From Escherichia phage A4, in the sequence record ON286972: DNA of 64,000 nucleotides; one strand, given 5' to 3'. The translations under genes were made by a program, and so were the position numbers. Under the pieces are notes generated by a model that did not search any database, was not told where the DNA came from, and saw nothing but the letters and a program-made list of their open reading frames with translations. Below, in pieces: positions 5,020-64,000 of this stretch; within the stretch, counting starts at the first letter, position 1, and each line of letters starts with the position of its first letter.

Positions 5020-5190
5020 ATGAGTCTGAGTGAATCCTGGAAACAGTTCAAAGAAGAGATTGGTTATCGTGGTGTATCGAGTGAACCAATCAATCGTACT
5101 GAAAGCATTAAGGCCAGTACTAACGGTACTACCTATGACCGATATGACCCACGTTACGGGTTACATGAAGAAGTCAAAAAAGAAGATTGA
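5020..5190 (+). CDS. small hypothetical protein (about 56 aa)
   Basis: short ORF with AAGGGG SD; preferred over overlapping track ORF 5030..5230; coordinates approximate. Confidence 0.35.
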   Translation: MSLSESWKQFKEEIGYRGVSSEPINRTESIKASTNGTTYDRYDPRYGLHEEVKKED

Positions 5191-5253
5191 CAATATATCG
5201 AGAGTGTGTGATAATACTCTCGTCTTTTAATTAAACAAAAAGGTAAAATAAAA

Positions 5254-12181: not shown

Positions 12182-12671
<490 letters not shown>

Positions 12672-12688
12672 TAATTAAAGGTTAAACC

Positions 12689-13067
<379 letters not shown>

Positions 13068-13068
13068 C

Positions 13069-14083
<1,015 letters not shown>

Positions 14084-14086
14084 TTC

Positions 14087-14242
<156 letters not shown>

Positions 14243-14270
14243 CAAAACGAAATGATAATAGGAAATTAAA

Positions 14271-14456
14271 ATGCAACTTTTAATTCTTTCAATATTGTAT
14301 ATTATTATAATGGTTCCTATATCAATACGTTTAATTATACTTGAACGATTTTTATCGAAACATGGAAATAGATCTATGATATTTGTACCAATCGGGCTTA
14401 TATTGTTTGGTATATTTGCATTTATAATGGGAATTAACGCTACATTCATTTCATAG
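14271..14456 (+). CDS. small membrane protein
   Basis: ATG ORF with AGGAAA SD; two hydrophobic helices. Confidence 0.5.
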   Translation: MQLLILSILYIIIMVPISIRLIILERFLSKHGNRSMIFVPIGLILFGIFAFIMGINATFIS

Positions 14457-14465
14457 GAAACAAAT

Positions 14466-14947
<482 letters not shown>

Positions 14948-14954
14948 AAGAACG

Positions 14955-14987
<33 letters not shown>

Positions 14988-14988
14988 C

Positions 14989-15044
<56 letters not shown>

Positions 15045-15045
15045 T

Positions 15046-15231
<186 letters not shown>

Positions 15232-15295
15232 TCATTGAATGGGGTGTATTATGGTTCAAGAAGAAAACTGGGGTTTTTAACCTAACGAGGTCAAT

Positions 15296-15438
<143 letters not shown>

Positions 15439-15439
15439 A

Positions 15440-15570
<131 letters not shown>

Positions 15571-16391: not shown

Positions 16392-16583
16392 ATGTTCTGG
16401 AATTTGTTATGTCTTTTTGGTCGTACCTTTGTTCTTGCAATTATCCATACACCAGGTATTCGTAATTTTGTTTCTTATGAATTTAAGAAAAATTATCACA
16501 ACAATACTGAAGTTCGTGCCACTAAAATGTGCAAAGACTTCAATGTAACAGTACCACCATTTAAGAAGTACGAGGATGAATAA
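16392..16583 (+). CDS. small hypothetical protein
   Basis: track ORF 16368..16583 trimmed to ATG after GGAG SD. Confidence 0.4.
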   Translation: MFWNLLCLFGRTFVLAIIHTPGIRNFVSYEFKKNYHNNTEVRATKMCKDFNVTVPPFKKYEDE

Positions 16584-16861
16584 TGGAATTCATTGTAGCT
16601 CCTGAAGAACTCAAGACCTTTAAGTTCAAAGATAATTATACGTATTCAAATCATTCCTTGAATTCAATTCATGTAATTGCAATGGTTGCATCTGAATATA
16701 AAGATAACCCGTGTATTGATTTTAAAACCACTGATGGTGAATATACATGGGTGATCCCACGAGATAAATATAGTTATCAAGGGGCAGTAGAAATTCGTGA
16801 CTCGATTCTAAAACAAATCGAAGATGGACATACTCATCCTAAACTAAACATTCAGTACTGA
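16583..16861 (+). CDS. hypothetical protein
   Basis: ATG overlapping upstream stop, SD GAGGA. Confidence 0.5.
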   Translation: MEFIVAPEELKTFKFKDNYTYSNHSLNSIHVIAMVASEYKDNPCIDFKTTDGEYTWVIPRDKYSYQGAVEIRDSILKQIEDGHTHPKLNIQY

Positions 16862-17111
16862 AAATGTTATACCGATAGCTTCTGGAGCAGTACTGAATCC
16901 TCCTTTTTCTTTCAGAAGCTATCACATATTTTGTCGTAAAATGGTACTGTGAGTGGTTTGTCTTTCCATTCTCTCCAGGTCCAGTACCTATCATTGTAGT
17001 TCTGGAGAGATATAACATGTATAATGTTTTTTACCTCCTGTTTATCATTATATATGTCACTAAACGAGTAATAACTACCCTCCCTCTAGGTTATTACTTT
17101 TGATTTTGGTA

Positions 17112-17140
17112 TTGACTTTCAATGCCGCAAATGTTATACT
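17112..17140 (+). promoter_or_regulatory. sigma70-type promoter (TTGACT-N17-TATACT)
   Basis: hexamers in 330-bp noncoding region upstream of gene 17191. Confidence 0.45.
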
Positions 17141-17143
17141 TAA

Positions 17144-17172
17144 GGCTGATTCAAATTGAATCGGCCTTTTTT
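17144..17172 (+). terminator. terminator-like hairpin in 5' leader (GGCTGATTCAAATTGAATCGGCC + T-run), possible attenuator
   Basis: hairpin plus TTTTTTCTTTTT between promoter -10 and the SD of gene 17191. Confidence 0.4.
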
Positions 17173-17190
17173 CTTTTTAAGGAGAACACC

Positions 17191-17586
17191 ATGAATTTGG
17201 TTGTAGAAGACGATATCTTTTCCGATGCTATTGAGTATATGTACAATCTTGTTAGACTTAATGAATTTGTACAACGTCATACATTGACACATAAGGATGG
17301 GATTATTACTGTTGGTGCATACATTAATGGATACTTAACCGAGTTTTACAATTGTGATAACATTTTTATAACCATTGATAACATCACTACGACTAATGAC
17401 ATATCCATTGATTTATTCAAAGATCATATTGAAATTGATATAGACAAGATGATTGCCATCGATATCGATCCTGTAATGTATGAGTTACAAGAAGAAATGT
17501 ATGAGCAATTATGCTTTGTGTATGATTTGAGTAAAATTTCATTCTTTGACTTACGCAGAATCTGTTACGTAGTAGGTAAGTTATGA
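17191..17586 (+). CDS. hypothetical protein
   Basis: track ORF 17122..17586 trimmed to ATG after AAGGAG SD. Confidence 0.5.
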   Translation: MNLVVEDDIFSDAIEYMYNLVRLNEFVQRHTLTHKDGIITVGAYINGYLTEFYNCDNIFITIDNITTTNDISIDLFKDHIEIDIDKMIAIDIDPVMYELQEEMYEQLCFVYDLSKISFFDLRRICYVVGKL

Positions 17587-22071: not shown

Positions 22072-22100
22072 AAAAAGCCTCCATATGGAGGCTTTTTTTA
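22072..22100. terminator. bidirectional rho-independent terminator between convergent genes
   Basis: hairpin AAAGCCTCC-ATAT-GGAGGCTTT flanked by A-run and T-run. Confidence 0.65.
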
Positions 22101-54373: not shown

Positions 54374-55726
54374 TTACAACAATTGTATTTCTGTGAGTGT
54401 TTGATATGTTGTACCGTTGTACACACCTCTCCAATATACCCTACCTTCAGTACTAACCACTAATAATCCATATGTTGTAAACCCAAGAGTACCACCAACA
54501 TACATAGCATCTTTAATTCGAATACCAATGTCTTCATATGTAAATGAAGCGACTGCTCCCGCTTGCCACGAAGGACTAGCGTAGTAATCACTATAAACAC
54601 CATGTGCTTTATATATTGATGTTGTTCCTGGTTCAAAAATTACAGTTCCACAGTAGTTCATTCGTATTTTAGTACTGGATGAAGTCGGTACATTTATACC
54701 TATGCCATCTTTTATCCCTGTAGTTAGGACGTTAAAACCACCCGCCACACGGTTGACGTCATTCTCACCGATTAAAAACATACCAACGTTGTAGCCCATA
54801 TAATATACACTGCTACTGCCATTCCAGAAAGAAAAACCACCACCATTACCACAGCGATATAGTTGTGAATTTGAGCAGTACATCATACCTTCGTTTGTCG
54901 CATCAAATTCATCTGCTGTTCCTATTGTAGCTACAGTAGTCCACGTTTTAATCACTTGGTTTGTACTAGCTGGTGTTTGTATACCATATCGTATATTATA
55001 TCCCTTACCAACGATTGTACCATCTTCTAATTTAGCATAAAGTACAGGTCTATTACCAACAAAATACATATTATTGTGTGACATGTCTATTGTGCATCTT
55101 AATGAAACTACTTTTTGTGTCAATTGATTATCTTTAGTAAAAGAAGTAAAGTAGTAATCCGATGTTGAGTTGTTTATTAAACCTTGTATTGACAATCCCA
55201 TATACCAGATTTCACCATTGCTGTTTAATGCTGCCAAAATACAACTATATTTTGAAGTGTATGCTGGTGATGTTGTTGAAGTTGCTGGTCCTTTATCATA
55301 TCCACCACAGAATACCATCTCCACAACTTCACCTACGTTCGAAAAATAAGAAGATACATTGATAAAACCATTTGTTATAAAAGGTGCTGTATTCATACTT
55401 GAATGTGTGAATATCCCATTTGCATATACACCACAAAAATGATATGAACCATCATTATCTTGGACTATTATTCCATTTGATAGTAACCAAAAATTGTTTA
55501 CATTTTTTCTTACTAATTCAACTCCTGCACCATTGGTTGGTGTTATACCAAAAGAAACATATTTTGTTTGACCAATACCATATAAATTTCCATTAGTTGC
55601 TAGTATTGCACCAAACCAGTTCCCACCACCATTCCTATCATGACCCATACCAATGGAGTCAAATTTCTTCACAGTAGGGACTTCAACTTTATTCCCATAC
55701 TCTAGCATTCTAACAAAAGGTAACAT
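54374..55726 (-). CDS. RCC1-like beta-propeller protein with MLPFVRMLEYGN leader (array member 8)
   Basis: SD AGGAGG then ATG MLPFVRMLEYGNKVEVP; motif GNLYGIGQTKYVSFG. Confidence 0.7.
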   Translation of the reverse strand: MLPFVRMLEYGNKVEVPTVKKFDSIGMGHDRNGGGNWFGAILATNGNLYGIGQTKYVSFGITPTNGAGVELVRKNVNNFWLLSNGIIVQDNDGSYHFCGVYANGIFTHSSMNTAPFITNGFINVSSYFSNVGEVVEMVFCGGYDKGPATSTTSPAYTSKYSCILAALNSNGEIWYMGLSIQGLINNSTSDYYFTSFTKDNQLTQKVVSLRCTIDMSHNNMYFVGNRPVLYAKLEDGTIVGKGYNIRYGIQTPASTNQVIKTWTTVATIGTADEFDATNEGMMYCSNSQLYRCGNGGGFSFWNGSSSVYYMGYNVGMFLIGENDVNRVAGGFNVLTTGIKDGIGINVPTSSSTKIRMNYCGTVIFEPGTTSIYKAHGVYSDYYASPSWQAGAVASFTYEDIGIRIKDAMYVGGTLGFTTYGLLVVSTEGRVYWRGVYNGTTYQTLTEIQLL

Positions 55727-55801
55727 ATATCCTCCTTTATTCATTATATTATATTTAATCAAAAAAGAAAAGCCAGTACAGAGTACTGGCATTTAAAATA
55801 A
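55727..55801 (-). repeat. conserved intergenic cassette (terminator hairpin GCCAGTAC...GTACTGGC + T-run, AT-rich TATAAT-containing promoter-like segment, AGGAGG SD)
   Basis: minus-strand reading TTTAAATGCCAGTACTCTGTACTGGCTTTTCTTTTTTGATTAAATATAATATAATGAATAAAGGAGGATAT-ATG; recurs 6 times. Confidence 0.65.
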
Positions 55802-56977
55802 TCAAAATGTAGGAAGTTTGAATTCTCTCATAACAGATGAACTGCTTGCAGATACATTATCTGGTGATTTCCCTGCGTAGTATAATTTATTATCAATGAA
55901 CATATACAATGTTGCATCATTTCCTGCTACAAGTGATTCACTTTTCTTAAATTTAACACCACTAGGTAAAATTGCTTCAACAAATGAACCTGATTCTCTT
56001 GTAGTATTATTTGCCAATTGACCATTGTTATTATAACCAGTACTATAAATTTTACCTGAACTATAATATACGAGTCCACGAGTACTAGTGTTTTCTATTC
56101 GAATGAATTCACTATCATCTGGGACTGTAGTTGATAGAACTGGGTTTAACTTATAAGCAGATGATACATTATTATTACCCAATTGACCATAACCTTGAAA
56201 GCCTAGTGTATACATAGGACATGATTCTGGTGTGCCTTTTGTTATAATACCAATATAATTCACACTACAAAAAATGTCTATTGCTTCTGTAATAGGTGTA
56301 CCCTTATATTGAACCCAAGGGAATACATACGATTGTTGCTTACCATTTCCCAAAGTACCGGAAGTTGTTGTCCCAGTACGCCACATTGTATCATCAAGTT
56401 TAATAATCCAGTTAGCTGTCGTTATCGATGAACAGAATTTTTTAACATTATCCACTAAAAATGTAAATTGATTATAATATGATGCAGTGTTTATACCAAA
56501 CTTAGCACCAGTATTATCACCTAACAAATATAAACTATTATCTGTACCTAAAATCAAAGCATAATCATAACCCACGTATATATCTTTAATTCTTGAAATT
56601 CCAAATTGTGTAAAATAGCTTGTACATTCTGTGAATGTTGTTATATTATTGGTTGTATTATTACCTAGCCATTTATCTAAACCACTATAAAAGAATCTAT
56701 CATCATTTGTGCGTATTAGACAAAAAGCGTTCATTGTACTGCACCAAAAATCTTTAACATTGCTATATATTTTTGTCCATTCAGTTACTGCATTAGTATG
56801 ACCTAAACCAAAAATTCCACCATTCTGAAGACCAATAGCCCATATTGAACCATTTTTATCAAGCATCATTGTACATGTATGTGAATAACCACCCGATGGT
56901 GTAACTAATTTAACAAAATTGGGAATATATGGTAAAACTTTATTTCCATAATCCAACATTCTAACAAAAGGTAACAT
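55802..56977 (-). CDS. RCC1-like beta-propeller protein with MLPFVRMLDYGN leader (array member 7)
   Basis: SD AGGAGG + ATG; motifs GSIWAIGLQNGGIFGLG, GKIYSTGYNNNGQLANNT. Confidence 0.7.
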   Translation of the reverse strand: MLPFVRMLDYGNKVLPYIPNFVKLVTPSGGYSHTCTMMLDKNGSIWAIGLQNGGIFGLGHTNAVTEWTKIYSNVKDFWCSTMNAFCLIRTNDDRFFYSGLDKWLGNNTTNNITTFTECTSYFTQFGISRIKDIYVGYDYALILGTDNSLYLLGDNTGAKFGINTASYYNQFTFLVDNVKKFCSSITTANWIIKLDDTMWRTGTTTSGTLGNGKQQSYVFPWVQYKGTPITEAIDIFCSVNYIGIITKGTPESCPMYTLGFQGYGQLGNNNVSSAYKLNPVLSTTVPDDSEFIRIENTSTRGLVYYSSGKIYSTGYNNNGQLANNTTRESGSFVEAILPSGVKFKKSESLVAGNDATLYMFIDNKLYYAGKSPDNVSASSSSVMREFKLPTF

Positions 56978-57048
56978 AATTCCTCCTTTATTCATTATAC
57001 TATATTTAATCAAAAAAGAAATGCCAGCATCAAGTACTGGCATTATTG
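56978..57048 (-). repeat. conserved intergenic terminator/promoter/SD cassette
   Basis: hairpin ATGCCAG...CTGGCAT + T-run + ATATAGTATAATGAATAAAGGAGG. Confidence 0.6.
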
Positions 57049-58239
57049 TTATAGTTGTCTTGGTGTATCAAGTACATATCTATTTGTACTAGGACCACCA
57101 TCATCATACGTTCCGGTTGAATATATATTTTTCATATCAGCAGTTAGAAAAGTACGATACGAACCGCGATATATTTTTATTTTATCATACATAGAATATG
57201 ATATTTCTGCTGGCATTGGACATATAGTAAATCTACCAATAGTAACATTAGAACCAACACCCAACGAACCAGCATAACTACTCGCATTTAAACCAGTTGC
57301 ATATACACCAGTACTCGTAACTAGTATACTAGATTGTGTTGGGTATCCTGTATGAATTGAATACAAAGTTCCAGTTGGTAATGTCGTACTATTGCTCCCT
57401 AATACAGCAAGTGCCGAACTGGTTGTGGTATTGTTACCCCATGCACCATTACTCGCTAAACCACCAACTAGAAACTGACGTGCACCAGTACTTGGATTCT
57501 CAACCAAAGCACTGACTGCACCACTTGAGCATCCAGTGTATTGTAACGTTTTTGTGTATGTTGTACTTGGTTTATATAAAGTATATTCATTAAATGGTGT
57601 CCATGTGGTACTGGTACTTATACCTGACGTACCACCACCAATATATAAATTATTTTGTGTATCAAAAAACATTACACAGTTATTTGTTGACTGTATTTGT
57701 GCAATATCAACATTAGGCGTGACAGCTTTTACAAATGATCCATCTGTTATTTGTTGAGTACTACCAGTACCATCAGCGAATTGTCTAGCCCCACTCCAAC
57801 CAGTACTCCATATTGTATTATTATCCATTAATACCGTAAACCACGTAGTACCTCCATACATCTGTTTAATTGAAGTACTTGAACTTTGCGTGTACAAATT
57901 TTCAATATATTGGTTATAACTTAAAAACGTAGTAGTACTAGTTGGTAAACCAATATGATCACCATATCCACAATAAAAATAATTTGAGTCATTATCTTGT
58001 ACTAACAAAGTTCCTTGTGACACCCAGAAATCTTTAACATTTTCTCTAATTAAGGTCCATGACTTTACTGCATTACTATTTCCTATACCAAACTTCCCAA
58101 AACTATTATTTCCACGTGCGTATAGTTGACCATCCGTATAAAGAACGACAACATCTAAATCAGTTGGTGTTATTTTCTTAATTTGAATAGGGACTGGTGT
58201 TATATTCCCATAATCAAACATTCTAACAAAAGGTAACAT
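57049..58239 (-). CDS. RCC1-like beta-propeller protein with MLPFVRMFDYGN leader (array member 6)
   Basis: SD GGAGGG + ATG; motif GQLYARGNNSFGKFGIG. Confidence 0.7.
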   Translation of the reverse strand: MLPFVRMFDYGNITPVPIQIKKITPTDLDVVVLYTDGQLYARGNNSFGKFGIGNSNAVKSWTLIRENVKDFWVSQGTLLVQDNDSNYFYCGYGDHIGLPTSTTTFLSYNQYIENLYTQSSSTSIKQMYGGTTWFTVLMDNNTIWSTGWSGARQFADGTGSTQQITDGSFVKAVTPNVDIAQIQSTNNCVMFFDTQNNLYIGGGTSGISTSTTWTPFNEYTLYKPSTTYTKTLQYTGCSSGAVSALVENPSTGARQFLVGGLASNGAWGNNTTTSSALAVLGSNSTTLPTGTLYSIHTGYPTQSSILVTSTGVYATGLNASSYAGSLGVGSNVTIGRFTICPMPAEISYSMYDKIKIYRGSYRTFLTADMKNIYSTGTYDDGGPSTNRYVLDTPRQL

Positions 58240-58310
58240 ATTTCCCTCCTTTATTCATTATACTATATTTAATCAAAAAAGAAAAGCCAGTATCAAGTAC
58301 TGGCCTATAT
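58240..58310 (-). repeat. conserved intergenic terminator/promoter/SD cassette
   Basis: same cassette family (GCCAGTACTTGATACTGGC hairpin). Confidence 0.6.
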
Positions 58311-59480
58311 TTAAACTGGTGAATCTAATACAAATTCTAAACTACTAATGCCACCATATGTGACATTTGTCCCTGTGCTATATACAAAATTACCATCAGT
58401 TATATAAGTTCGGTTATACCCACCTGCCATCTGCGACTTACTATAATCAAACCCATCAGGAACGATTGCTTTGGTATATACTAATGCATTATTAGATGTA
58501 CCAATACCTAACATACCAGCTCCTGAAGATTTATTGTAGCCGCAACAATATATACCATCTGTTGTAGCAATAACTTGGTTATAATATGAAGTAATGTTAG
58601 CAATGCTTACTACATCACCGGGTGGCATTAGTGAAGCAGTTTGAACCTCAAATGCTCTATAATCACTGAGAGAACCATTTATCCCATCTGCTTGTGCACC
58701 AAATATTCTCGAACCGCCATTTGCGATGATGGTTTTACCAGTGGGATCAGTACCAATTGCCATTGCCATTGAAGTACTATTCTCCATATAGTACTTGATA
58801 TTAATTGTATTTCTTAAGCTGGTAGGAGCACCATAATATATAGTATATAACTTACCTCCTGAACTTGTAACTGCATTTACTCTTCCTGTATAAAATAGCC
58901 ATCCTTGGTTTGTAACATAACCGTGCATTAAATTACTTGCAAACAATTTAACAGGTAATTGATCTGCTGCGGTCGGAACAGTACTTTTGACGAATTTTCT
59001 AGCAACATTGTTAGTTGTTGTCCCATCACCCAACTGACCATCACCCCCTGCTCCAGTACTCCATATTGTTTGGTCTGTTAGTAATACACTTGTAGTCTGA
59101 TAACTAACTGCTATATCTAATATTGGTAATGTTAACGTATCGAATGTTGGCATAGCAGAAGTCCATATTGATACTGCTGCCCCTGGCATACCAACAGTTG
59201 TTGAACTTCCACTGTACCATATTTCATCATTGCTTTTCTTAATAACTATCGACGTGGCTCCCATCCAAAAATCTTGAACATCAGAAGTGCTAAAAGTCCA
59301 TGTAGTAACAATATTTTTGTGACCTAAACCCAAAAGACCATTTGTATTCTCACCACGCACATATAAATCACCACTGTTTGTTAAAACAGCAACATTATAG
59401 TTGTTAGCTAGTATTTTTTTAATATTTGGTTTAGCAGGTGCAATATTCCCATACTCTAACATTCTTACAAAAGGTAACAT
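58311..59480 (-). CDS. RCC1-like beta-propeller protein with MLPFVRMLEYGN leader (array member 5)
   Basis: track ORF extends upstream into cassette; trimmed to SD-proximal ATG; motif GDLYVRGENTNGLLGLG. Confidence 0.7.
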   Translation of the reverse strand: MLPFVRMLEYGNIAPAKPNIKKILANNYNVAVLTNSGDLYVRGENTNGLLGLGHKNIVTTWTFSTSDVQDFWMGATSIVIKKSNDEIWYSGSSTTVGMPGAAVSIWTSAMPTFDTLTLPILDIAVSYQTTSVLLTDQTIWSTGAGGDGQLGDGTTTNNVARKFVKSTVPTAADQLPVKLFASNLMHGYVTNQGWLFYTGRVNAVTSSGGKLYTIYYGAPTSLRNTINIKYYMENSTSMAMAIGTDPTGKTIIANGGSRIFGAQADGINGSLSDYRAFEVQTASLMPPGDVVSIANITSYYNQVIATTDGIYCCGYNKSSGAGMLGIGTSNNALVYTKAIVPDGFDYSKSQMAGGYNRTYITDGNFVYSTGTNVTYGGISSLEFVLDSPV

Positions 59481-59550
59481 AATTCCTCCTTTATTCATTA
59501 TATTATATTTAATCCAAATAAGAAAGCCAGTATCAAGTACTGGCATTGTG
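59481..59550 (-). repeat. conserved intergenic terminator/promoter/SD cassette
   Basis: same cassette family. Confidence 0.6.
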
Positions 59551-60660
59551 TTATTTCGGTAAATCAATTTTAGTAAAGACTGCAACATCCTCGCTTGCAC
59601 CGGGAATGGCGTAATACGTTCCAGTACTATATACATCTCCATTTTTGGTTAATATTGAAGTCAAACCATCACTAAAAAGAACATCCCTAATCTCACTAAC
59701 TTCAACGGGTAATTGTAAATTTGTAGCACTATATATAGCACCAGTTTGAGAATTGTTTAATCCCAAACCACGGTTCGCCCCAACACCCTTCTGATATGTA
59801 CTGGTAATTACCATTTGTGTAGCAGTATTTAATGCAGGTGAATTCGTCATAAACAACGGAGAACTATTAGGCAAAGTACTTACAGGAACTGCACGGAATG
59901 TAGTCGTACCTGAACTAAGAAAGTTTGGAGTTTGACCACATACGAAATATGATGTACCATTATAGTAATTAAATGCATTACCACCAATCGCTGCATCGAT
60001 TACACCAGAACTACGTAATCCCCAAGTGTTAATTTGTGTTTGGTCCCCTGTACCATGCTGCCCACTGCTATTCCATCCAGAACTATATAGCTTATTATCT
60101 AATGTAATATACATACTATCATTTGCATTAGTCATTACTTTACGCACGTTAGTAGCACATTGAGTTAATGTGTAAATCGATGATGAGCCAATACCTAAAG
60201 AACCACGATATCCATTATCTCCTGCACCATAGAGTACTGAACTAGTGCTAAGTACAAATATTAAACCATTTGTACATACAATATTAGCAATTTCACTCAC
60301 TGGTATAGCATTGGTAAACCAATTAGTCCTTTCAACTAATATAGTACTGTAAGAAGTAGTTGTAGAAGATGAGAACCAGTACGTTTCACCCGATGTCCAT
60401 ATCGTATTATCATTTTTAATAATAACAAGTGTACGACCACCCACGAAAAAATTAGAAACATCTGAACTTACTAATATCCATGAAGATACCGTGTTGTTAT
60501 TACCATTTCCAGATTCACCACCTTGATTTCTACCTATGTAATATAAATCATGTGAATCAGTCAATAAGAATTGACCCTGTGTAGAAGCACCAACTTTAAT
60601 TATATTTTTAGGACCGGGTACAATATTCCCGTACACTAACATTCTTCCAAAAGGTAACAT
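59551..60660 (-). CDS. RCC1-like beta-propeller protein with MLPFGRMLVYGN leader (array member 4)
   Basis: SD AGGAGG + ATG; motifs HDLYYIGRNQGGESGNG, NKLYSSGWNSSGQHGTG. Confidence 0.7.
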   Translation of the reverse strand: MLPFGRMLVYGNIVPGPKNIIKVGASTQGQFLLTDSHDLYYIGRNQGGESGNGNNNTVSSWILVSSDVSNFFVGGRTLVIIKNDNTIWTSGETYWFSSSTTTSYSTILVERTNWFTNAIPVSEIANIVCTNGLIFVLSTSSVLYGAGDNGYRGSLGIGSSSIYTLTQCATNVRKVMTNANDSMYITLDNKLYSSGWNSSGQHGTGDQTQINTWGLRSSGVIDAAIGGNAFNYYNGTSYFVCGQTPNFLSSGTTTFRAVPVSTLPNSSPLFMTNSPALNTATQMVITSTYQKGVGANRGLGLNNSQTGAIYSATNLQLPVEVSEIRDVLFSDGLTSILTKNGDVYSTGTYYAIPGASEDVAVFTKIDLPK

Positions 60661-60733
60661 AATTCCTCCTTTATTCATTATACTATATTTAATACAAAAA
60701 AGAAAAGCCAGTACTCTGTACTGGCATATTACA
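60661..60733 (-). repeat. conserved intergenic terminator/promoter/SD cassette
   Basis: same cassette family (GCCAGTACAGAGTACTGGC hairpin). Confidence 0.6.
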
Positions 60734-61876
60734 TTATTTCCACGGTAGAAGTGAATCAGGAACTCTGGTTGGTACTCTAACGGCTGGAACATTTCCAAGT
60801 TCAGGTAAACCACTCATATACAAATTGTTATTTTCATCAATTATCATTGAATAGAAATTATCAATTACGAAGCCTGAAATTCGTCTTCCTTCTAATGCAT
60901 CAAGAACCATTTCGGTGAAAGTTAGTATATTTTCGGATGTTTGATTAACACCACATGCACCATAGGTATTTCGACCACAAGTATATAACTTATTATTATT
61001 TTTAACAACACATCCATTCCCTTCGTTGTTGGATAAACCACCCACCAACTCTATTTCACCTTGGAATGATAAATTGGGAATTAATGTACTCATTGGTACT
61101 GCTGATACTGTACCTACACCAGCTTGACCATATGCATTTGGTGAAGCAACCTTCACTGAACCATCATTAAGAAATATATATGAAGTACGGTATGTATTTA
61201 CAGCTTGTATAGCATTGGTGATAGTATTGTCTTTTGTAAAACTTAATATATTTGATGTTTTTGTACTACCAGGAGCAACAGTATTTCCTGCATACCAATA
61301 GGAGCCATCATCAAGTACTAACCCAGTACTGAGCAAAGAACAGCCATAACTTTTAACATTTTCTATAGTGCTGTATCTGAACGATGTGACATTAGCTGTT
61401 GACGCGTTACCAAATACACCACCTTCGCCAGAACCACAGTAGAACCATTTTCCATTTTTTAAAAATACACGCAAATTCTGCCCAACAGCAATACCATCAA
61501 TATCATCAGCACTGACACCAAAATCAGTGAAGTACTGGGTTACATCAATCCAAACCCCATTTGTATTTGTTCCGATTTGTGGCATTACTATACTAGCACC
61601 TGTGAACCAAATAGTTCCATCATTCTTAATGGCAATGGAACCAAGAACACCACCCCAGTAACGTTCAATATTATTATTCACACGGGTCCATACGGTGGAT
61701 GATTGTAATGAACCATTACCACCTTGTCCAAATGAAGATGAACCATACCAGTACAAGTCACCATTAACATGCAAATAAAAACGAGTATTATAATTTGCTT
61801 GTAATCTATTTTTAAATAGAGGTTTTGGTTCCGGTGCAATATTCCCGTACTCTAACATTCTAACAAAAGGTAACAT
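60734..61876 (-). CDS. RCC1-like beta-propeller protein with MLPFVRMLEYGN leader (array member 3; near-duplicate of member 2)
   Basis: 380 aa; N-terminus MLPFVRMLEYGNIAPEPKP and C-terminus ...VPTRVPDSLLPWK shared with 61949..63091. Confidence 0.75.
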   Translation of the reverse strand: MLPFVRMLEYGNIAPEPKPLFKNRLQANYNTRFYLHVNGDLYWYGSSSFGQGGNGSLQSSTVWTRVNNNIERYWGGVLGSIAIKNDGTIWFTGASIVMPQIGTNTNGVWIDVTQYFTDFGVSADDIDGIAVGQNLRVFLKNGKWFYCGSGEGGVFGNASTANVTSFRYSTIENVKSYGCSLLSTGLVLDDGSYWYAGNTVAPGSTKTSNILSFTKDNTITNAIQAVNTYRTSYIFLNDGSVKVASPNAYGQAGVGTVSAVPMSTLIPNLSFQGEIELVGGLSNNEGNGCVVKNNNKLYTCGRNTYGACGVNQTSENILTFTEMVLDALEGRRISGFVIDNFYSMIIDENNNLYMSGLPELGNVPAVRVPTRVPDSLLPWK

Positions 61877-61948
61877 AATTTCCTCCTTTATTCATTATAC
61901 TATATTTAATACAAATAAGAAATGCCAGTACTCTGTACTGGCATTATA
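61877..61948 (-). repeat. conserved intergenic terminator/promoter/SD cassette
   Basis: same cassette family. Confidence 0.6.
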
Positions 61949-63091
61949 TTATTTCCACGGTAGAAGTGAATCAGGAACCCTTGTCGGTACATTTGTAGTA
62001 GACACCCCATCAAGATTTGGTACACCGCATGTATATAAATTATCAGCATCGTCAACTAACATCGTATAGTTATATCCCCTACAAAAACTACTAACATTAC
62101 GACCTTCTAATGCAGTAAGAATCATTTCAGTGAATGTTGTTATATTTGTCGAGGTTGAACCAACACCACATTGTCCATTTGAATTAAGACCACATAAAAA
62201 TAACTTATTATCATTTTTAATTATACAGGATGGTCCAGTAAGGTTTGTACCAAGCTCACCCACTAACTCTATTTCACCTTGGAATGCTAAATTTGGAATT
62301 AATGTACTCATAGGGGCTGGTGTTGTATTCCCAGTACCTGCTTGACCACGTTCGTTGGAAGATGCAACTTTAACTGTTCCATCACTAAGAAATATATAGG
62401 AAGTTTCAATTGTATTGACTGCTTTAATTGCAGTGCTGATAGAAGTTTCTTGTGTAAATCTTAGCACGTTTTGTGCTGACGTTCCCGATATAAACGTATT
62501 ACCTGCATACCAATATGTACCATCATTGAGTACTAATGCAGTACTTCGAATTGCACAACCAGCACTTCGAACATTTTCTATAGTACTGTACGTGAATTGT
62601 GAAACGCTTGCCGATGAACCATTTCCGAATACACCACCACTCCCAGCACCACAGAAGAACCACTTTCCATTTTTCAAAAATACACGCATACACGCAGATA
62701 TAACAATACTATCAATATCATCAGCACTGACACCGAAATCAGCAAAGTGCGATGTCACATCAACCCAAACACCGTTAGTGTTTGATGCAATTACTGGAAT
62801 AACAGAACTTGTACCAGTGTACCAAATAGTACCATCTTTCTTTATCGCTATTGTTCCTTGAACACCACCCCAATATCGTACAACATTTGTATTGACGAGA
62901 GTCCATGCGGTTGAAGAGTTCAATGAACCATTACCACCTTGACCATATGATGAAGAACCAAACCAATATAGATTACCATTGGTGTGTAAATAAAATTTGG
63001 CATCTGCCGAGCATTGTAACCTATTTTTTAATCGTGGTGCGGGTTCCGGTGCAATATTCCCGTACTCTAACATTCTAACAAAAGGTAACAT
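61949..63091 (-). CDS. RCC1-like beta-propeller protein with MLPFVRMLEYGN leader (array member 2)
   Basis: 380 aa; motifs GNLYWFGSSSYGQGGNG, NKLFLCGLNSNGQCGVG; only 12 bp (GGAGG SD) after upstream gene. Confidence 0.75.
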   Translation of the reverse strand: MLPFVRMLEYGNIAPEPAPRLKNRLQCSADAKFYLHTNGNLYWFGSSSYGQGGNGSLNSSTAWTLVNTNVVRYWGGVQGTIAIKKDGTIWYTGTSSVIPVIASNTNGVWVDVTSHFADFGVSADDIDSIVISACMRVFLKNGKWFFCGAGSGGVFGNGSSASVSQFTYSTIENVRSAGCAIRSTALVLNDGTYWYAGNTFISGTSAQNVLRFTQETSISTAIKAVNTIETSYIFLSDGTVKVASSNERGQAGTGNTTPAPMSTLIPNLAFQGEIELVGELGTNLTGPSCIIKNDNKLFLCGLNSNGQCGVGSTSTNITTFTEMILTALEGRNVSSFCRGYNYTMLVDDADNLYTCGVPNLDGVSTTNVPTRVPDSLLPWK

Positions 63092-63103
63092 AATTCCTCC
63101 ATA

Positions 63104-64000
63104 TTATTTAAAAACATACTGCGTATTAACACGAGTGCCATTGTCAAAACCAAGTACATAAAATATCTCAGCACTATTCTTAGAACCAAATAACGCACCA
63201 GTACTACTACTCAAAGTAGTATTAACCGCTAAGGGAATCCATATGTCTTCTTCTGCATCGTATCTCAATAAATTTAATGCACCATACGACACTGCATATA
63301 TATTTTTATCATATGTACTGTAACATATTTTACTAGGGTTATTACCACCAACTGGTGCTATGTTAGACCACACCGCACTTTGTATATGATATTTTTGTGC
63401 AGTACTAGTACCTTGACCAGTAATATATATGTAAGTACCATCCGTACACATATCACCACCTCCATTGTTATTTGTTCCATCACTTGTACCTAATGATGAC
63501 CATGTATTAGTACTTGGAGTATAACTGTATAACGAATTATTAGTAGGCGAACCCCACAAATATATCTTATCCCCAGCAGTAATCATCTTACTATACGCCA
63601 GTTGACTAGGCTTCCCAATACTGTTAGTGTTCAGAATCCATGTATTTGTACTTATATTATATACATAAAAATTATTACTACTATTACCTGAACCACCAAA
63701 CAAATATATTTTTCCCTGATAAGCACATAACGCACTACCAAATGTAGATACAGGTGCATTGGCTAATTGTGACCACGTTCTTGTAGTTAAATTAAAACTC
63801 CATAACTGATTATCCGTCTGCACCGCATTCTGTATACCACCAAATATATAAGCAATATTACTTTCCGCATCATACGTATAACCAAAGTTATTTCGTGCTG
63901 AAGGTACTGGTGATGTAGTAAATTGTGTTCGTACTCCACCATTTGGGCCAGGTAATGGACCTACATTCCCGAACTCAAACATTCTTACAAAAGGTAACAT
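63104..64000 (-). CDS. Kelch-like beta-propeller protein with MLPFVRMFEFGN leader (array member 1)
   Basis: start codon is the last 3 nt of the window; repeated ...TNTW/TRTW... blade motifs (STNTWILNT, STNTWSSLG, TRTWSQLA). Confidence 0.7.
   Translation of the reverse strand: MLPFVRMFEFGNVGPLPGPNGGVRTQFTTSPVPSARNNFGYTYDAESNIAYIFGGIQNAVQTDNQLWSFNLTTRTWSQLANAPVSTFGSALCAYQGKIYLFGGSGNSSNNFYVYNISTNTWILNTNSIGKPSQLAYSKMITAGDKIYLWGSPTNNSLYSYTPSTNTWSSLGTSDGTNNNGGGDMCTDGTYIYITGQGTSTAQKYHIQSAVWSNIAPVGGNNPSKICYSTYDKNIYAVSYGALNLLRYDAEEDIWIPLAVNTTLSSSTGALFGSKNSAEIFYVLGFDNGTRVNTQYVFK

Follow-up and report, generated by a model that had tools for sequence, protein, structure and literature searches.

The window analysed here, i.e. 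the whole 64,000-nt stretch, has a G+C content of 34.7% and belongs to a jumbo coliphage of the 121Q/PBECO4-like type (genus Asteriusvirus). Directly 3' of a cluster of six tRNAs (12491-15560, identified with ARAGORN), a small gene reaches its stop codon at 16861, and the ATG of the following gene lies at 17191, leaving a gap of ~330 nt. The downstream gene opens a tandem array of ~135-155-aa paralogues, which extends over ~5 kb. For the proteins of the flanking genes and the array no Pfam family was found, and all of their PHROG matches are of unknown function. The locus contains the following features:

16583-16861, + strand: upstream gene, 92 aa, ending in TGA
16850-16863, + strand: palindrome ATTCAGTACTGAAa, 13/14 matches to ATTCAGTACTGAAT
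16874-16884/16913-16923, + strand: hairpin H1, arms GATAGCTTCTG/CAGAAGCTATC, -18.5 kcal/mol, z -4.8, 0/200 shuffles as good
16930-17017, + strand: ~85-nt insertion holding H2, relative to 121Q, WPEC3 and UE-S1
16970-16978/17002-17010, + strand: hairpin H2, arms TCTCTCCAG/CTGGAGAGA, -16.0 kcal/mol, z -3.3, 0/200 shuffles as good
17015-17057, + strand: hairpin H3, arms ACATGTATAATG/CATTATATATGT, -10.2 kcal/mol, z -3.9
17066-17108, + strand: hairpin H4, arms AGTAATAAC/GTTATTACT, loop with CCCUCCCUC, then the T-run TTTTGATTTT; weak terminator-like
17103-17132, + strand: hairpin H4b, core GGTATTGA/TCAATGCC, -9.9 kcal/mol, z -2.75
17112-17140, + strand: predicted sigma-70-type promoter, -35 box TTGACT (17112-17117), 17-nt spacer, TGn (17132-17134), -10 box TATACT (17135-17140)
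17142-17168, + strand: hairpin H5, AAGGCTGATTCA-AAT-TGAATCGGCCTT with T6CT5 (T-tract 17167-17178), -16.2 kcal/mol, z -5.2, 0/200 shuffles as good
17179-17184, + strand: Shine-Dalgarno sequence AAGGAG, preceding the ATG at 17191-17193
17191-17586, + strand: downstream gene, 131 aa, first in the tandem array

Both inverted repeats that a preliminary description of this DNA had placed at 16874..16922 and 16969..17010 exist, and the hairpins of the region are far more stable than their shuffles, but the former runs on to 16923, 1 nt further, and the latter starts at 16970, 1 nt later. They had been introduced jointly as two long hairpins, yet they are not equivalent, since H1 is conserved and H2 is part of a lineage-specific insertion. 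The TTGACT-N17-TATACT promoter at 17112..17140 was found as described, as was the hairpin with T-run that follows it immediately and precedes the Shine-Dalgarno sequence of the gene at 17191. That earlier reading left out H3, H4 with its T-run, H4b, a second CAGTACTG palindrome and the lineage-only nature of the H2 insertion.

Exact-protein look-ups recovered the same intergenic region in nine contigs at 99.4-100% identity, which are too alike for a covariation test. Among them are contigs of 352-359 kb in the bacterial assemblies GCA_036253495.1, GCA_011911785.2 and GCA_025677605.1, which suggests that these isolates carried the jumbo phage or were sequenced together with it. The segment 15500-16943 of the window matched 35 Asteriusvirus-type genomes at 81-88% identity. 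Our comparative alignment consists of eight Asteriusvirus lineages (named relatives: 121Q, G17, WPEC3, UE-S1, CMSTMSU, JNE01 and ph0011), and H5 was also located in the Klebsiella phages RaK2 and Muenster (Alcyoneusvirus). Pattern scans of IMG/VR for further relatives returned 121Q and RaK2 only, besides chance terminators. In the literature on Asteriusvirus and this phage group we found no transcriptome or transcript 5'/3' end data.

The predicted promoter matches the consensus at 10/12 positions plus TGn, and its 121Q counterpart (TTGACA-18-TATACT) at 11/12. Consensus promoter-like sites as a class are not in excess (48 versus 50.2 in shuffles, 10 kb); what lends credibility to the site at 17112 is the pattern of its conservation rather than its score. 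Across the Asteriusvirus sequences, TGTTATACT is invariant (8/8) and TTGAC is kept in 6/8, while the spacer of 17-18 nt drifts in sequence between the conserved hexamers. The T/A-rich TTTTGATTTT lies upstream of the -35 box. Sites with at least 10/12 matches number 67 on the + strand of the window and 15 on the - strand, and no further strong promoter lies ahead of the 5-kb array. From these patterns, we regard the promoter predicted at 17112 as probably real.

H5 comprises 12 pairs, five of them G-C, a 3-nt loop and a U6CU5 tract directly 3', so that it combines the GC-containing stem, short loop and adjoining U-tract by which intrinsic terminators are recognized in sequence. It is conserved in 10 lineages of two genera (the eight of Asteriusvirus, RaK2 and Muenster), with 95.8% of the alignment cells paired. 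JNE01 has one stem pair with both partners exchanged (U-A to A-U), and a U.G wobble is retained in 9/10 sequences, the exception being ph0011 with U-A. The loop is free, with ~7 variants in length and sequence; the U-tract is conserved, and the distance from H5 to the ATG stays within 25-31 nt. The best conserved block of the whole region, TGTTATACTTAAGGCTGATTC...GAATCGGCCTTTTT, corresponds to the -10 box and H5. Judged by these features, H5 is probably a real intrinsic terminator. A terminator scan of the + strand found none between 15217 and H4/H5, and the next at 22093, the end of the array; H5 would thus close the upstream unit and the 17112 promoter would open that of the array. A covariance model of the promoter/hairpin module, run over the window in search of further copies, scored the module itself at 74.6 bits and the next candidate at 17.1 bits (E 0.3). 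The module is single-copy: the window contains it once, and each relative genome has it at one place.

The spacing of the two elements bears directly on how they may work together. Transcription from a sigma-70 promoter starts ~7 nt (range 6-9) downstream of the -10 hexamer. Here, the last nucleotide of the -10 box is 17140 and the first of the H5 stem 17142; this gap measures 1-3 nt in 8/8 Asteriusvirus sequences. By these spacing rules, we infer a start at 17146-17149, 6-9 nt past the -10 box, where purines stand at 17148 and 17149; it would fall inside the 5' arm of H5, the GC-rich stem base (GGCU) of which occupies 17144-17147. Of the stem, an RNA beginning at 17147 keeps no more than 7 A/U-rich bp (-4.7 kcal/mol, z -1.5), and GGCC intervenes between these and the U-run. 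Since the residual stem is weak and apart from the U-run, RNA of the 17112 promoter should read through. RNA arriving from upstream carries the whole 12-bp hairpin and the U-tract, so that termination is expected at H5, the most likely role of which is to end the upstream unit. With moderate confidence, we interpret the locus as a conserved terminator with a promoter on top of it, where one gene block ends and the next begins afresh, and not as an attenuator.

In this interpretation, the region would be the junction of two early transcription units in an Asteriusvirus-like jumbo phage. Upstream transcripts, e.g. from promoters at 15224 and 16319, would traverse four small genes, pass a structured 3' UTR of ~300 nt (H1, H3, H4) and end at H5, which, perhaps aided by H4, would close the unit fed by these promoters. 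The sigma-70 promoter would lie over the terminator, with its -35 box in a small hairpin and RNA polymerase initiating within the 5' arm of H5. The new transcript would lack the GC-rich stem base, form no terminator and read into the array from 17191. Such a module would insulate the array from upstream read-through and supply it with its own fixed promoter. Several observations count against the junction: the near-invariance of the H5 stem across genera is more than a generic terminator requires, the hairpin has no abutting promoter in RaK2 and Muenster, the module is not repeated within a genome, and H4 with its T-run is already weak-terminator-like upstream of the promoter, so that H5 may be partly redundant. 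If the interpretation is correct, Rak2/121Q-type jumbo phages run early hypervariable arrays with T4-type overlapped terminator/promoter logic. It would also provide transcription-unit boundaries for genomes in which >80% of the genes are unannotated, with practical use in annotation and in phage engineering, where the module could serve as a compact insulated expression cassette.

A further non-coding stretch of ~270 nt lies at 14948-15220. It harbours two perfect 14-bp palindromes and ends in a terminator (~15185-15217) running into the predicted promoter at 15224, which would drive a 37-aa ORF (15297-15410) ahead of tRNA-Thr. Within the tRNA cluster, strong promoters at 12453-12491, 13434-13471 and 13958-13993 end 7-11 nt before tRNA-Ser, tRNA-Gly and tRNA-Ser, respectively, so that these tRNAs would be made with almost no 5' leader.

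The hairpin also occurs without the promoter. In RaK2 and Muenster, H5 follows directly on tRNA-Thr, before the first gene of the homologous array, with TTTACT or TTTATA in place of TATACT and no adjoining consensus promoter; a promoter-like site lies ~60 nt upstream of the hairpin. Promoter and hairpin are thus not an obligatory pair, and because the hairpin is found in both genera and the abutting promoter only in Asteriusvirus, the hairpin is the older element. This arrangement would suit a reading in which H5 is simply an intrinsic, partly leaky terminator at the end of the tRNA/early unit, the promoter match, if used at all, is a weak one, and expression of the array relies on read-through. 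In its favour, promoter-like matches occur at chance frequency in this AT-rich DNA, and GenBank records annotate just a terminator here (those of G17, UE-S1 and Muenster at the H5 equivalent). Nevertheless, we consider this unlikely, given that TGnTATACT and TTGAC are conserved in eight lineages while the spacer drifts, that the 121Q site scores 11/12, that high-scoring sites show a strong + strand bias and that the 5-kb array has no other strong promoter ahead of it.

Turning back to the terminator overlapped by a promoter, we compared the sequences on its two sides. The upstream protein is 82% identical to gp144 of 121Q, and the downstream protein shares 44% identity with its 121Q counterpart along a part of the sequence and ~35% along the whole; the gene that comes after it is unrelated. 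For the module of 45-55 nt, identity amounts to 87-95%. Judged from these values, the module is located on a sharp mosaic boundary. Identity falls from 82% to ~35-44% and then to no similarity across the module, and the flanking genes belong to no known family.

The strong conservation of H5 could also mean that it is mainly a sequence-specific RNA or DNA element, for instance one that binds a phage protein or one that, as a 5'-terminal stem, stabilizes or tunes translation of the first array gene, with termination being secondary. The near-invariance of its stem, including the U.G wobble, across two genera with unalignable flanks speaks for such a role, as do the hairpin-ATG distance held at 25-31 nt and the fact that a transcript from ~17148 would open with a 5'-terminal stem. 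We nonetheless judge this quite improbable. No partner protein is recognizable, as the neighbouring genes belong to no known families, the swapped stem pair and the variable loop are what a plain structural hairpin would show, and the conserved U-tract is terminator-like.

Upstream of the promoter, the fold of the 361-nt stretch as a whole reaches a z of -6.0 on the + strand versus -3.1 on the - strand. Variable positions give G.U pairs on the + strand only and the + strand fold is the stronger one, which places the structures at the RNA level, in + sense. The H1 stem is perfect over 11 bp, 14 bp counting G.U pairs, and its loop of 22-28 nt holds CAGTACTGAAT and CCUCC; the short T-run 3' of it is stronger in relatives. 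H1 is kept in the Asteriusvirus relatives with 100% of cells paired, is missing from ph0011, and displays one compensatory A-U to G-C swap as well as two U.G changes that pair only on the + strand. The ~85-nt insertion holding H2 is confined to the lineage of the window (nine near-identical contigs), among which H2 varies by one A->G change at 16977 that yields a G.U pair. The arms of H3 make TATAATG readable on both strands, its loop contains CCUCC, and counterparts exist in 121Q, G17, WPEC3 and CMSTMSU. H4 and its T-run lie just 5' of the -35 box; in relatives its structure is retained with a different sequence, several pairs being altered on both sides. H4b, the 5' arm of which contains the -35 box, has no U-run and also forms in 121Q, JNE01 and ph0011. 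For H3, H4 and H4b, the structures persist across Asteriusvirus while the sequences shift.

The palindrome ATTCAGTACTGAAa overlaps the final codons and the TGA of the gene at 16583-16861 and could pair with a copy at 16885-16898; this second CAGTACTG palindrome sits in the H1 loop and is complementary to the stop-codon region. One compensatory change supports CAGTACTG-CAGTACTG pairing, which is ambiguous because the palindrome is a genome-wide repeat. Stop-codon read-through via the possible pseudoknot was rejected, as the frame is open for 25 codons in the window and closed after six in 121Q. We also discarded several candidates for genes and promoters in the gap. The minus-strand 59-aa ORF at 16839-17018 has no family match, and its frame and start are not conserved between lineages; the same holds for the gp145 ORFs annotated as genes in 121Q and G17, which have no family match and differ in frames and starts between lineages. 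A hydrophobic 28-aa + strand ORF (MYNVFYLLFIIIYVTKRVITTLPLGYYF, 17017-17103), with GGAG 9 nt upstream, is probably no gene: its frame is not kept in 121Q and WPEC3, and it has no family match. The TATAAT at 17020 has no acceptable -35 box in the window or in 121Q and was dismissed as a sigma-70 promoter.

In base composition, the + strand of the region is pyrimidine-rich, with 37-45% purine versus 52% in the window, and three of the 23 copies of CCTCC in the window fall within these 330 nt, all in hairpin loops, where 0.12 would be expected. The minus strand of H3 reads TATAATGATAAACAGGAGG and is close to the TATAATGAATAAAGGAGG leaders of a minus-strand gene family at 54-64 kb; from this resemblance, the stretch with the CCTCC loops and H3 may be a decayed relic of a minus-strand gene-start module. 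The family itself is a tandem of eight paralogous genes of ~380-470 aa on the minus strand (54374-64000), all with the N-terminal motif MLPF(V/G)RM(L/F) and most preceded by the leader TATAATGAATAAAGGAGG and by GCCAGTAC...GTACTGGC terminators. Scanning 14-20 kb with Rfam 15 (E<=10) returned the neighbouring tRNAs and sub-threshold noise only; within the region the best scores were 17-21 bits (E >5), the gathering score not being reached, and ARAGORN found no tRNA or tmRNA there.

These structures raise the question of whether the pyrimidine-rich multi-hairpin stretch of ~300 nt at 16862-17170 is a functional non-coding RNA, either a product of the 3' UTR or a separate transcript starting from the TATAAT at 17020, with H5 as its terminator. 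The + strand fold z of -6.0, the maintenance of H1, H4 and H4b with compensatory or G.U changes and the accumulation of CCTCC in loops would fit such an RNA, and the related phage PA5oct has highly expressed non-coding RNAs (PMC7318152). The chances of this appear slim, however, as conservation is low in the middle of the region, where large indels occur, H2 being lineage-specific and H1 missing in ph0011. Moreover, there is no convincing upstream promoter and no Rfam match, the CCUCC loops are missing from RaK2, and H3, read on the minus strand, is similar to a gene-start module (TATAATGA..GGAGG) of which it is perhaps the decayed relic. We give similarly little weight to the related proposal of a stable structured phage RNA at 16850-17178, with a possible pseudoknot (two CAGTACTG copies and H1), anti-Shine-Dalgarno-like CCUCC/CCCUC loops in H3 and H4, and H5 as a sequence-specific recognition element for a protein or RNA. 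If true, this RNA could act on translation initiation or on mRNA fate during infection.

Attenuation at H5, or a short non-coding RNA from the 17112 promoter, had been suggested in the preliminary description; lambda pR'-tR' (Q antitermination) and leader attenuators would be parallels. In its favour, a promoter and a terminator are found within 60 nt ahead of a Shine-Dalgarno sequence, and in RaK2 the promoter-like site ~60 nt upstream could yield an ~85-nt RNA ending at the hairpin, but the idea is hardly tenable: with 1-3 nt between -10 box and stem, the full hairpin including its GGCU base would not be transcribed from the 17112 promoter, the residual stem of -4.7 kcal/mol is weak and detached from the U-run, neither an alternative anti-terminator pairing nor a leader ORF is conserved, the reading frames varying from lineage to lineage, and there is no Rfam cis-regulatory match. 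On spacing, Q-type antitermination or attenuation was ruled out.

The repeat seen in H1 and at the upstream stop codon belongs to a larger pattern. AGTACT occurs 176 times in the 64,000-nt window versus ~18 expected under an order-1 Markov model (z ~52), and CAGTACTG has 38 copies versus 0.9 expected. The AGTACT copies are evenly distributed (7-17 per 4 kb), fall in all three frames of + strand genes (35/30/35) and occur in non-coding DNA as often as its share predicts. The even spread over all frames points to selection at the DNA level, independent of frame. An excess of AGTACT was also seen in the 121Q and RaK2 loci and not in unrelated viral contigs; in the RaK2 locus, a promoter-like site lies between two AGTACT palindromes (~601-660). 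We found no paper mentioning this excess, and genome-wide it may be a more interesting lead than the junction. The 14-bp palindrome ATTCAGTACTGAAT has 12 matches (<=2 mismatches) versus 0.66 expected, concentrated in the tRNA-cluster region (13036, 13445, 13969, 14971, 15092, 16286 and 16850, with weaker copies elsewhere). It is found inside the spacers of strong promoters (TTGACT-N8-CAGTACTG-TATAAT at 13025, 13434, 13958 and 31299) and twice in perfect form within the non-coding 14948-15220, an arrangement that looks operator-like. Further oligonucleotide biases of the window include the complete absence of GCGC (0 versus 29 expected), a depletion of GGCC (16 versus 48 expected) and GATC (101 versus 200 expected), and an enrichment of GTAC (491 versus 220 expected).

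Comparison with known systems shows the proposed overlapped terminator/promoter junction to be ordinary though neatly built, a known kind of phage regulatory cassette and not a new mechanism. With canonical Rho-independent terminators, H5 shares a short loop, a stem that contains G-C pairs and falls within 9-12 bp, and a U-tract adjoining the stem on its 3' side; it is likewise unidirectional, with G.U pairing on the + strand only. What sets it apart is that the initiation region of the predicted promoter extends over its 5' arm. In lambda pR'-tR' (6S RNA; Q antitermination) and in leader attenuators, a complete terminator is transcribed, tens to hundreds of nt after the start. The module shares with these systems a promoter closely ahead of a terminator and before the controlled genes; it differs in a predicted start within the stem and in having no Q-binding, pause or anti-terminator element.

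A closer match is found in the promoter-early stem-loop (PeSL) elements, composite sigma-70 promoter/terminator cassettes in the hyperplastic regions of T4-type phages, namely RB49/phi1, PST/T4 and nt-1/KVP40 (Arbiol et al. 2010, PMC2839356; Comeau et al. 2014, PMC4122927). Their stem-loops fall into five positional subclasses, one of which lies just downstream of the -10 box, and both terminator and promoter activity of these cassettes were shown experimentally (PMC2839356). The window contains nine GGGTTGACTTCGGTCAGCCC-T-run-TATAAT modules (29.4-47.1 kb) with the -35 box in the terminator stem. In these composite modules, AAAAGGGTTGACTTCGGTCAGCCCTTTTTTGCTATAAT (29382, 37278, 37635, 39003, 40292, 41926, 44392, 45121 and 47113), the 5' arm is the -35 box and the U-run the promoter spacer; as read from this layout, they are a PeSL-like family in a Rak2-type jumbo phage. 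The module at 17112 resembles them in its terminator/promoter overlap, in the H4b hairpin over the -35 box and in a -10 box of the TGTTATACT type (cf. 37278). In the GGGTTGACTTCGGTCAGCCC modules the terminator comes ahead of the -10 box; the module at 17112 has instead lost the U-run of its hairpin over the -35 box and carries a separate terminator 3' of the -10 box. From its sequence, a third geometry of terminator/promoter overlap is present at 5187-5232, where the loop of a terminator hairpin (CGAGAGT...ACTCTCG and T-run; hairpin module 5187-5225) includes the -10 box of the promoter TTGACA-17-GATAAT.

Like a PeSL, the module at 17112 would fuse a strong sigma-70-like promoter to a terminator stem-loop in the interval from a stop codon to the following Shine-Dalgarno sequence. 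As in one of the positional subclasses, H5 begins 2 nt past the -10 box; the -35 box lies within H4b. A further shared feature is the T/A-rich stretch 5' of the -35 box. The setting may be another: PeSLs lie among the small ORFans of hyperplastic regions, at end-points of insertions or replacements between related phages, and the module stands where the genomes of relatives cease being alike. Unlike PeSLs, the motif of which is repeated many times per genome within gaps of ~100 nt, our module is single-copy per genome and lies in a gap of 330 nt with extra hairpins. In addition, its host is a Rak2-like jumbo phage, not a member of the Tevenvirinae, and its hairpin also occurs without the promoter in Alcyoneusvirus. 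By analogy, the module most likely works like a PeSL and is best regarded as a counterpart in a different phage group rather than as a proven PeSL.
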